Source: an uncultured virus (IMG/VR IMGVR_UViG_2630968395_000002) (taxonomy: Duplodnaviria; Heunggongvirae; Uroviricota; Caudoviricetes). From it: a stretch of 20,000 bases of DNA. This document shows, piece after piece, positions 1 to 2,903 of this stretch; position 1 is the first letter of the stretch; the number at the start of each line of letters is the position of its first letter. A program made the translations under genes and the position numbers. Below the pieces are notes generated by a model, which made no database searches, was not told the origin of the DNA, and saw only the letters and a program-made list of their open reading frames with translations. The stretch lies in the IMG/VR virus record IMGVR_UViG_2630968395_000002. One strand, 5' to 3'.

Positions 1-373
1 GCGCGCCCAACTGGTTACGACGTACTTCTAAAAACGCATTACCGAACACCAGATAATCCAGTGCATAGCGGCTAAAAGCCTGCTGACTGAGCATTGGGTG
101 AGGGGTAAATGTGCTTGCCAGTATGTTGCGTTTCACATACAGCGGTGAGCTGTGATGTACCGCCGCACGGAAGCTGCGCGCCAGCCCGTCAAAGCTGATC
201 GGCGGGTCATACCACTTGCCGTTACCGGTGCATTCGATGTAATCCAGAATTTCCCGCTTATCGAGCACGGCGGAGGGTTCGCCAAAAGTGAACGCCTCCA
301 CCGGTTGCTGTTGACTGGCGGTGTGATTGGTTGCTGGTCGGCTTAATGCCTTGCGGCCTTTGCGTTTACTCAT
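1..373 (-). CDS. Q: Portal protein gpQ, 5' part (runs off the left edge)
   Basis: Not in the ORF track. Manual translation from ATG at 373 gives MSKRKGRKALSRPATNHTASQQQPVEAFTFGEPSAVLDKREILDYIECTGNGKWYDPPISFDGLARSFRAAVHHSSPLYVKRNILASTF..., the typical P2 portal N-terminus. The frame is open to the window edge. Confidence 0.93.
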   Translation of the reverse strand, partial: MSKRKGRKALSRPATNHTASQQQPVEAFTFGEPSAVLDKREILDYIECTGNGKWYDPPISFDGLARSFRAAVHHSSPLYVKRNILASTFTPHPMLSQQAFSRYALDYLVFGNAFLEVRRNQLGA

Positions 374-1134
374 TTTACTTCCCCTGCATTGCTTGCCGCT
401 TGTGACCAGTCACATAAATATAAGAGATTGAAATCATCTATTGTCATGTGCTTTTTCAGCCAATCTTTACCCCAGTTCTTTTCCCATAACGTACAGCCTT
501 GCTGAATGGCAGCATCAGCCGTGACCGATTGACGGAATACGCCATCAGCGCAAAAAACGCCGTTATCCGTGTGTATCACCGGTGCTACTTTTCGTGGGCG
601 GCGCAGTGAGCCGTTCCAAATCTTGAACGCGGTATTTGAGTGGGAGGGCGTGGTGTAGAGTGTTAAACGATGATTTTTGTGCATTGCCATCCCCTTAGCC
701 ATGTGCAGTATTGAACGTGGGTTTTTAGCCCATGCATATTCACCCAGGTACACATTCCCAGCATGAGCGGCGGCGTGACTGTTTTCCCCGTGAAAGGCGA
801 TGAGCGCGCCATTACCTAGCAACATGTTACTTGGCGAGAATGAACTCACGTTTACCCCAACTACCCGACAAAACTCTGCAAGATAAGCGCGGGTATTCAG
901 GGCGCTACTTCTGGAGCAGGTTAAAAAATGCTGATTGCGGCCGGTGGTGATGGCATCCAGTAACGCTTCAAAAGCGAAAAGCCAGTCGGCCCCAATCTGG
1001 CGCGATTTGGTGAGACTGCGGTCTGTGCTGGTCTGCCCCACGTGATACCACGTTTTCTGATAATCAAAGGCCGAGTTTTCGAAATGTTCGCGCAGGCCGT
1101 CAAGCTGACCAGCAGTAAAAGTCATTGGCTTCAT
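370..1134 (-). CDS. Terminase ATPase-domain-only paralogue of gpP (254 aa), function unknown
   Basis: Aligns by eye to the ATPase domain of the adjacent gpP: FDYQ, KSRQIGA, EALLDAITTGRNQ, GNxYLxEY, TPS, CxDGxxRQxVT. ATGA overlaps with P (1131-1134) and Q (370-373). Confidence 0.88.
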   Translation of the reverse strand: MKPMTFTAGQLDGLREHFENSAFDYQKTWYHVGQTSTDRSLTKSRQIGADWLFAFEALLDAITTGRNQHFLTCSRSSALNTRAYLAEFCRVVGVNVSSFSPSNMLLGNGALIAFHGENSHAAAHAGNVYLGEYAWAKNPRSILHMAKGMAMHKNHRLTLYTTPSHSNTAFKIWNGSLRRPRKVAPVIHTDNGVFCADGVFRQSVTADAAIQQGCTLWEKNWGKDWLKKHMTIDDFNLLYLCDWSQAASNAGEVK

Positions 1135-2903
1135 TGGTAAAACTCCAAGAAATTAGGGCTGTGACCGCCATATGTCGCGGTAAGGGGTTCATTTAACAGG
1201 GCATGCATAATCGCCCACGCCACATCGGCGTGGCTGGCTTCTTCGCTGCGGCTGGCAACATAAGTCGAGCTTTTGCCGCTGGCGGTCATGGTTTTGCGAA
1301 TGGCCATAAAGGACTGGGTGATGTCGGTGTGGCCGGTGTCATATTCCAGGCGGCCGTTATTGATGGTGTGCTTGGCTTTCAGCACCATGGCGGTCTTGAT
1401 TTCAGGGGTGTATTTGATTTCCCTTGCTGCCGGGAAGAACTGGCGCACCAACTGGAAAACGCCTTGGCCGACGGTAGTGGCATCGATACCGATATACTCC
1501 ACGCAATATTTCTGCGTCAGCTCTTCGATATGTTTGGCCTGCGCCTCAAAGTCCATCCCTTTCCACTGGTGGCGTTCCAGTACGCGGAACTTGCCGCCCG
1601 GCACCATCGGCGGTGCAATCACCGCACACCCGGCGCTGTCGCCGCCGTTGGCCTCGGACGGGTCGTAACCAATCCACACCGGGCGATGCCCAAATGGCCG
1701 CAACGAATACGGGTTGTAGTCCTCCCACTCTTCCAGACTGTCCACCATGCAAGCCTGCAACTCGGCGAACGGGAAGACGGACGCTTGATCGTCAACAAAT
1801 TCGCACATCAACAGGTTTTGATATTCTGACGGGCCGTATTCCAGTGAGAGCTGGTTGAGGTCAAACAGGTTACAGCCGCCCGCCAGTGCATCCTCAACCG
1901 TGACAATCTGCCGCCACTGACCATCATCACACAGCGCGCCACGGGCTAAATGGCTGTGGCTGAGATCCAGTTGGATATGGTCGGATTTATTGCGGCGGCC
2001 TTTATTGAACAGCTCACCAGACCAGAACGGATAGGCACTGTGCGCCAGACTCGACGGGGTGGAGAAATAGGTGGTACGCCATTTCTTGTGTAATGACATG
2101 CCGCTGGCGACTTTGCGCAGTTCCTGAAACTTGGGGATCCAGAAATATTCGTCAAGATAGAGATTGCCGGTGTAGCTCTGCGCCGTACGGACGTTAGTAC
2201 CGAGAAAGAACAGGCGCGCCCCGTTCGGTAACACCATCGGGTCGCCTTTCAGGTCAACGTCAACCATCCGGGCGAAGTCGATAATGTAACTTTTGAACAC
2301 GTGCGCCTGTGCTTTGCTGGCGGACAGAAAAATCTGATTACGGCCTGTTGTGATGGCATCCAGTAACGCTTCACGGGCAAAGAAGAACGTTGCGCCAATC
2401 TGCCGTGATTTCAGGATATTGCGGATACGGTGAGTTAACCCGGCCTCAAACCAATTACGCTGATAATCAAAGATATTTTCATGAAATATCGACTCCAGCT
2501 TCTCAATCGCCGACTCACTAAACAGGTTTTTGTCCGGCGTCTTGCGCTCCCCTTTGTTGCGGTTCGCCACTGCCGGGTTTAAGTCGGCCTCACTGCCGGT
2601 CTGGTTATAACGGTTCACCCGCGCCAGCCGTTCAATCTGGCGGCCTAACAGGTCAATCTCTTTAAAATCCCGCCCCTCTTTGGCGTCTTTCATGATGAGC
2701 TGAATTAACCGCGCTTCCATGCTGGTTTCCACCCGAGAAATGGGCGCAATGGCATCCCACCCGTCGCGCTTCTTCCAGCTCTGCACAGTCGGCGATTTCA
2801 GGGCCAGCGTGTCCGCAATCTGGCGCACAGAAAAGCCTTGCCAGTAAAGCAAGGCCGCCTGTCGCCGTGGGTCGCTGATAATGGTGCTCGGTGTCGTATT
2901 CAT
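1131..2903 (-). CDS. P: Terminase ATPase (large) subunit gpP, 590 aa
   Basis: N-terminal DPRRQAALLYWQG HTH region, Walker A-like KSRQIGAT, Walker B LYLDE, C-terminal nuclease motifs WIGYDP and HADVAWA. Divergent from O as in P2. Confidence 0.96.
   Translation of the reverse strand: MNTTPSTIISDPRRQAALLYWQGFSVRQIADTLALKSPTVQSWKKRDGWDAIAPISRVETSMEARLIQLIMKDAKEGRDFKEIDLLGRQIERLARVNRYNQTGSEADLNPAVANRNKGERKTPDKNLFSESAIEKLESIFHENIFDYQRNWFEAGLTHRIRNILKSRQIGATFFFAREALLDAITTGRNQIFLSASKAQAHVFKSYIIDFARMVDVDLKGDPMVLPNGARLFFLGTNVRTAQSYTGNLYLDEYFWIPKFQELRKVASGMSLHKKWRTTYFSTPSSLAHSAYPFWSGELFNKGRRNKSDHIQLDLSHSHLARGALCDDGQWRQIVTVEDALAGGCNLFDLNQLSLEYGPSEYQNLLMCEFVDDQASVFPFAELQACMVDSLEEWEDYNPYSLRPFGHRPVWIGYDPSEANGGDSAGCAVIAPPMVPGGKFRVLERHQWKGMDFEAQAKHIEELTQKYCVEYIGIDATTVGQGVFQLVRQFFPAAREIKYTPEIKTAMVLKAKHTINNGRLEYDTGHTDITQSFMAIRKTMTASGKSSTYVASRSEEASHADVAWAIMHALLNEPLTATYGGHSPNFLEFYQ

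Follow-up and report, generated by a model that had tools for sequence, protein, structure and literature searches.

Why does a P2-like phage carry, between the gene for its large terminase (P) and the gene for its portal (Q), a second open reading frame that resembles the terminase, and what could the product of such a gene do? The window, by which we mean the whole stretch of 20,000 nucleotides analyzed here, is the late region of a P2-like phage, in which Q, the W-type ORF and P lie on the minus strand and O, N, M and L come after P on the plus strand. The ORF at 370..1134 on the minus strand starts with an ATG, encodes 254 aa and contains no internal stops. The ORF, its junctions and its two neighbours are laid out as follows.

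2..373, minus strand: 5' part of portal gene Q, its first 124 codons, cut by the start of the window.
370..373, minus strand: ATGA overlap of the W stop (TGA) and the portal Q start (ATG); read from the sequence and conserved in relatives.
370..1134, minus strand: W-type gene, a stand-alone terminase ATPase domain of 254 aa, assigned to the orthologue group of phage 186 W by BLASTP, Pfam, trees and AlphaFold2.
378..384, minus strand: GGGGAAG, a Shine-Dalgarno-like element 4 nt before the Q start, within the 3' end of W; read from the sequence, with a putative function.
1131..1134, minus strand: ATGA overlap of the P stop (TGA) and the W start (ATG); read from the sequence and kept in four W-bearing relatives.
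1131..2903, minus strand: gpP, the full large terminase (HTH, ATPase and nuclease) of 590 aa, parent paralogue of W; identified by Pfam.
1143..1146, minus strand: GGAG, a Shine-Dalgarno-like element 8 nt before the W start, within the 3' end of P; read from the sequence and presumed to function as such.

When the ORF was compared with the neighbouring gpP, BLASTP aligned its residues 6-220 with residues 128-350 of P, with 88 of 226 positions identical (39%, E 1e-47), and the phmmer match stretches to about residue 372 of P in relatives. This agrees well with the initial annotation, which had aligned an intact 254-aa ORF by eye to roughly residues 125-375 of gpP. According to Pfam, the W-type ORF contains Terminase_6N only (E 4.7e-18), and gpP contains Terminase_5/HTH, Terminase_6N and Terminase_6C. 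As had been proposed from the letters, W lacks both of the other regions that characterize a gpP-type TerL: the N-terminal Terminase_5/HTH region is absent, and so is the C-terminal RNase H-like nuclease domain (no Terminase_6C), the C-terminus of the window protein lying about 10 residues past the last ATPase strand. The AlphaFold2 model, computed from 76 aligned sequences, is that of a complete and confident single ATPase domain (pLDDT 92, pTM 0.91). Among solved folds, the nearest to this model is the ATPase domain of T4 gp17 (2o0h, E 1.5e-8), followed by the D6E, P74-26, HK97 and Sf6 terminases. Both ATGA overlaps, which are read as tcat at 1131-1134 and 370-373 on the plus strand, are present as first described. 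The resemblance between the ORF and gpP and the junctions that join it to its neighbours are far beyond chance. We detected no promoter- or terminator-like excess within the P-W-Q operon. Relatives that are 90-95% alike are represented by RNA-library contigs spanning P-W-Q, in 4 runs of 4 studies; these contigs are long, possibly DNA, and cannot show transcription.

The ORF had initially been taken as a new insertion, on the premise that P and Q are immediate neighbours in phage 186. This premise is wrong: in the 186 records (U32222 / NC_001317), Orf12 ('P2 P homolog') and Orf2 ('P2 Q homolog') are separated by a CDS at 1215..1961, which encodes 248 aa and is annotated 'W protein; similar to Orf12'. 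In the records of PSP3 and of Erwinia phage EtG, the gene between P and Q is annotated as similar to 186 W. The window ORF is 46.7% identical to 186 W versus 39% to its own P, and 186 W scores 227 bits with the window ORF as phmmer query versus 147 bits when the window gpP's ATPase domain is the query. The ORF is not an insertion new to this phage, then, but a member of a long-annotated family, and it has the size of that family, whose members consist of the ATPase domain only (around 235-254 aa). We regard it as almost certain that it belongs to the orthologue group of coliphage 186 gene W, here in a Yersinia-type P2-like phage, and that it is an ancient copy of the gpP ATPase domain made with terminase and portal. 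Annotation of the gene dates back to the 1990s, and GenBank contains near-identical copies; as a sequence finding, it is ordinary. In the literature accessible to our search, no paper discussing the W gene was found.

Like 186 W, PSP3 gp2 and EtG gp02, the window gene occupies the place between P and Q, on the same strand and with stop/start overlaps, and encodes the ATPase domain alone; all of them fall in the same clade (100/100). Unlike them, the window protein is basic (pI 9.1 versus a median of 7.4 in the 186 type), is 254 aa long against 248 aa in 186, and shares only 45-47% identity with the three; the Thr of Walker A and the Asp of Walker B, which are kept in the 186-type W, are Asp and Gly in the window protein. 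Charge was considered as a clue and dropped, because the Yersinia W proteins are basic but the clade as a whole is not.

A tblastn search of a phage collection with the window ORF matched 489 records, at most 23 of which have a second matching place. Four records are 80-90% identical to the ORF and represent two Yersinia phages, each deposited in both GenBank and RefSeq; the next tier, at 45-49%, comprises 186, PSP3, EtG, Midge, SI22, SW9 and BIS20. In vB_YenM_201.16 (NC_070914 gp20) and vB_YenM_56.17 (NC_070915 gp20) the counterpart is a second 'terminase, ATPase subunit GpP', 87.8% and 85.8% identical to the window protein, respectively, with the same length of 254 aa, the same junctions and the same Asp/Gly site. 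These copies are annotated merely as terminase large subunit, and the available parts of the paper on the Yersinia phages (PMC9224151) do not discuss the gene.

An exhaustive HMMER search of 1.84 billion representatives returned 312 hits at E <= 1e-3, many of which are short proteins of 225-264 aa that are matched end to end. A tree of the ATPase region was then built from 57 short and 69 full-length rows, leaving out 13 rows of intermediate length and the hits covering fewer than 195 query residues. The window ORF falls, along with 186 W, within a clade of 40 rows that are all short (SH-aLRT 99, stem 0.75). A separate, tight clade of 21 rows (98) unites the gpP domains from enterobacterial phages, those with W and those without. 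A more careful tree, with 38 rows of W and 15 of the outgroup, splits the two at 100/100. Whether homologues form a clade separate from gpP had been set as a check at the outset, and in both trees they do. Twelve other short ATPase-only rows are scattered among the full-length gpP clades and five more stand beside the W clade; these may be of independent origin or represent cut gene calls.

To follow the gene across genomes, ORFs in all fetched loci were classed with phmmer. A W-type ORF was found in 35 loci, the window and its identical IMG/VR copy (L030) being counted separately, and 33 of them have the order P-W-Q. Whether homologues always sit between P and Q had likewise been set as a check; this placement is seen in the great majority, with two exceptions. 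One is phage MLG42 (L028), where the fetched stretch stops at the record start just past W. In the other, a metagenome viral contig (L045, 1320-5263), W and Q are present without P, and immediately upstream, on the opposite strand, come the tail genes gpU and gpD. The same contig has a WapI-like immunity-family ORF after the portal gene, and it may represent either a remnant left by rearrangement or an assembly chimera. An MLG42-type W of 241 aa does lie between P and Q in another locus (L047, 4889-5614).

The W-type frame is intact in 33 of the 35 loci. A decaying symbiont prophage (L012) retains a W piece of 107 aa, and at L105 (4889-5161) only the last 90 codons of W are left, still coupled between P and Q. 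An Erwinia tracheiphila prophage (L007, 2234-4001) has its P split into three frames (218, 132 and 222 aa) and carries an intact W (248 aa) and an intact portal gene.

W is rare. In loci without it, P adjoins Q (12 loci of the first set), and P-Q was found in 58 of 80 IMG/VR loci. Among 401 sampled genomes of the order, 65 have a gpP-type match, at 81 places in total, and short frames occur at only 2 of these 81 places (260 and 264 aa), each beside a full-length frame. In an unrelated genome of the order (G055:C6:54283-56318), a gpP-type frame of 614 aa stands in tandem with an ATPase-only frame of 264 aa, which is 37% identical to the window ORF.

The clearest view of presence and absence comes from the close relatives of the window. 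Phage vB_YenM_31.17 has no W, and its P and Q are joined exactly at one ATGA; vB_YenM_06.16-2 matches the stretch likewise, in two pieces that cover 76% of it, and has a single annotated terminase. Alignments of vB_YenM_31.17 with W-bearing phages showed that the difference is exactly a 762-bp module between two ATGAs, and that the GGAG that serves W precedes Q instead when the module is absent. The P protein of 31.17 is 98.5-99.2% identical to that of W-bearing phages. Across nine genomes with W and two without, 21 positions of P vary and none of them is a fixed difference, indicating that P needs no adaptation to W. This comparison of genomes shows W to be, to all appearances, optional for making phage. 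Although it has persisted over a long span, the gene comes and goes cleanly between the two ATGAs.

W is said to have been defined genetically by conditional-lethal head mutants of 186, in work attributed to Hocking and Egan in 1982 and to Portelli et al. in 1998, and its letter name in 186 presumably denotes a conditional-lethal complementation group. In a coupled P-W-Q operon, an amber allele of W could be lethal via polarity on the portal gene.

We then compared rates of evolution by the Nei-Gojobori method, using 10 distinct W genes of the Yersinia group and 9 P genes from the same genomes. W has a dN of 0.059 and a dS of 0.22, which gives a dN/dS of 0.27 (mean pairwise 0.266, range 0.21-0.36); the values for P are 0.008, 0.25 and 0.03 (0.031), respectively. 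The first 124 codons of Q have a dN/dS of 0-0.03. Since dS is equal, W and P are of the same age in the Yersinia-group genomes, and non-synonymous change has been about eight times faster in W than in P. W is under purifying selection. In windows of 30 codons, omega never exceeds 0.51 and is lowest (0.06) at codons 111-140, around Walker B. Along with the separate clade and the ATGA coupling, these values corroborate the initial view of an old, selected paralogue with clean domain boundaries.

What selection has kept, and what it has let go, is best seen at the ATP site, which the alignment places as follows.

985..1008, minus strand: Walker A, KSRQIGAD (K43-D50); Lys, Arg, Gln and Gly are kept and the last residue is Asp.
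739..753, minus strand: Walker B, VYLGE (V128-E132); Asp is replaced with Gly and the catalytic Glu is kept.
643..654, minus strand: C (coupling) motif, TTPS (T161-S164), which reads STPS in gpP; the name of the motif comes from work on T4 gp17.

All 69 full-length gpP rows have the Walker A pattern K-x-R-Q-x-G-x-T/S and the Walker B pair Asp-Glu, and the W protein of the window departs from both. Within the W clade, K43 is found in 39 of 40 rows, R45 in all 40 and E132 in 38. The 186 subgroup (19 of 40 rows) keeps the Walker A Thr and the Walker B Asp. In the other 21 rows, Asp is the closing residue of Walker A, and in Walker B the Asp has become Gly (12 rows), Ser (6), Pro (2) or Ala (1); these rows comprise the MLG42 subgroup, five deep single rows and the Yersinia subgroup, to which the window protein belongs. 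The new Walker A Asp is kept in 21 of 21 rows over path lengths of more than 2 changes per column, and the old Asp position drifts among small residues. Covariation of Walker A and Walker B as repeated events was considered and rejected, as the careful tree needs one change only, that is, one inherited swap that was then kept; the swapped side of this tree is weak (75/44, recovered in 82% of bootstrap trees).

In P-loop NTPases, the last position of Walker A and the Walker B Asp are Mg ligands. The pattern in the window's subgroup suggests to us that the acidic Mg ligand has moved, rather than that the site is dead. The replacement of Thr and Asp in 21 of 40 rows could instead mean that Mg-ATP chemistry has been lost. 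One Yersinia-group W (L035, 3501-4265) carries E132A (GAA to GCA) in a frame that is otherwise intact, and the catalytic Glu is also absent from two other members of the clade. Given these Glu-less members, hydrolysis may not be required of W.

Like the P2-like gpP (Terminase_5, Terminase_6N and Terminase_6C), W has the ATPase fold and the pocket residues. Unlike gpP, it has no HTH and no nuclease domain, its protein evolves about eight times faster, and the gpP motifs SASxxQ (194-199) and TNxxTAQ (236-242) are absent from the window protein. The residues S194/A195/S196/Q199, G220 and T236/N237/T240/Q242, which are invariant in gpP, are lost in W, and Q242 is deleted in 40 of 40 rows. A search of solved structures with a gpP profile returned nuclease domains only, so that the arginine finger and the DNA-gripping residues were not mappable onto W by sequence.

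What, then, might W do? It is most probably transcribed and translationally coupled within the late P-W-Q operon, and so made together with terminase and portal. It would still bind ATP, with the P-loop Lys and Arg, the catalytic Glu and the C motif kept and with Mg ligands that appear to be re-arranged in the window's subgroup. It would do so without the motifs that are invariant in gpP outside the pocket, without DNA recognition and without a nuclease. Because the pocket is kept but the outside motifs and the DNA-recognition and nuclease domains are lost, W could act on the gpP/portal packaging machine as a nucleotide-dependent partner or modulator whose presence is facultative, rather than serve as a second motor or cutter. 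Its siblings without W show no fixed change in P, which argues that W as a motor subunit would be facultative at most. Taken whole, 186 W-type identity combined with a facultative role in packaging is the best explanation we can offer, and we put it forward as plausible though short of probable. The mechanism on its own, in which W binds ATP and assists or modulates the packaging machine, is possible but somewhat doubtful.

The W family is a natural experiment, in which a terminase ATPase domain has been freed from DNA recognition and cutting. Should W prove to be a facultative partner of the motor, or else an answer to terminase-sensing immunity, the study of phage packaging or that of phage-host conflict would gain something new.

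The second of these possibilities holds that W serves anti-defence or immune evasion: as a look-alike of the terminase ATPase, it would bind sensors of the Avs1-3 or Upx type without triggering them, or would blunt them. Under this reading, which we consider unlikely, the window's subgroup would escape triggering the sensors by virtue of its rewired Mg site. It would suit a gene that is patchy, dispensable and fast-evolving, and one in which precisely the two positions that hold the Mg ligands differ in 21 of 40 rows, with the new Asp kept in all 21. The fast evolution of W fits a conflict gene as well as a modulator.

In the available portion of a 2026 preprint, the terminase ATPase domain alone activates EcAvs2 and Upx, and EcAvs2 contacts the terminase-bound ATP and its Mg hydration shell via a bridging ATP (10.64898/2026.04.30.721860). 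Its authors suggest that terminase-like activators that are not terminases may be anti-defence proteins, which also favours such a role for W. The same portion describes T4 vs.8, an uncharacterised stand-alone protein that resembles the terminase ATPase. Like W, vs.8 is a short stand-alone paralogue of the terminase ATPase domain of its own phage. Unlike W, it comes from another terminase lineage and another genome place, and its Walker A and B are reported as conserved; the two are likened by description only, as given in that portion of the text. As the one analogue tested, vs.8 speaks against evasion, since it is toxic with EcAvs2 and does not protect (10.64898/2026.04.30.721860, in the part available). 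On these findings, and to the extent of that partial text, a W-type protein is likely to be a ligand of sensors of the Avs2/Upx type; by the analogy with vs.8, it would be a trigger rather than a sponge.

The gene itself offers further objections to immune evasion. In every 30-codon window of W, dN/dS stays at or below 0.51; at this resolution, the 10 genes compared reveal no arms-race patch. The 186-type W, with 19 of 40 rows, keeps the canonical Thr and Asp. Moreover, W is located inside the core operon and not in the cos-proximal region, which the available text of PMC9122126 describes as a variable/defence hotspot of P2-like phages. The most specific version, in which W is a terminase mimic directed against host immunity, with a moved Mg ligand and an altered Mg/ATP face that would soak up or blind an Avs2-type sensor while gpP works, is in our judgment quite unlikely.

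It might also be asked whether W does anything at all. A functionless duplicate carried along between two essential, coupled genes could well be dispensable and often absent, as W is, and could leave remnants such as those of 107 aa in L012 and 90 aa in L105. Rarity, frameshifts and a dN/dS near 1 had been named at the outset as signs of a decaying duplication; W is rare (2 of 81 places), but 33 of 35 frames are intact and dN/dS is 0.27, falling to 0.06 in the Walker B region. The active-site Lys, Arg and Glu have been kept across a clade with path lengths of more than 2 changes per column. A functionless duplicate is therefore very improbable, and a decaying one was rejected on rates and intact frames. 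That W is a dominant-negative guard, poisoning the terminase of the helpers of P4-type satellites or of rival P2-like phages, is hardly credible: the one point in its favour is an ATPase fold with which W might, in principle, enter a foreign terminase complex, but W is late and coupled to its own P, hence made only when its own terminase is working, this P has no fixed change that would give immunity to W, and none of the loci examined has a link to satellites.

Two minor features were noted on either side of the operon. In Yersinia phages, a 3'-5' exonuclease gene lies directly after the portal gene (L003, 445-834; L004, 443-832; L029, 4301-4690), which is in the cos-proximal hotspot region as outlined in the accessible part of PMC9122126. 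At the other end, a 31-codon ORF rich in Ala, Gly, Thr and Arg is found at 2900-2995 on the minus strand, and its TGA overlaps the ATG of P as ATGA; the same small ORF is annotated upstream of P as a hypothetical protein in vB_YenM_201.16 and 56.17, and not in 31.17.
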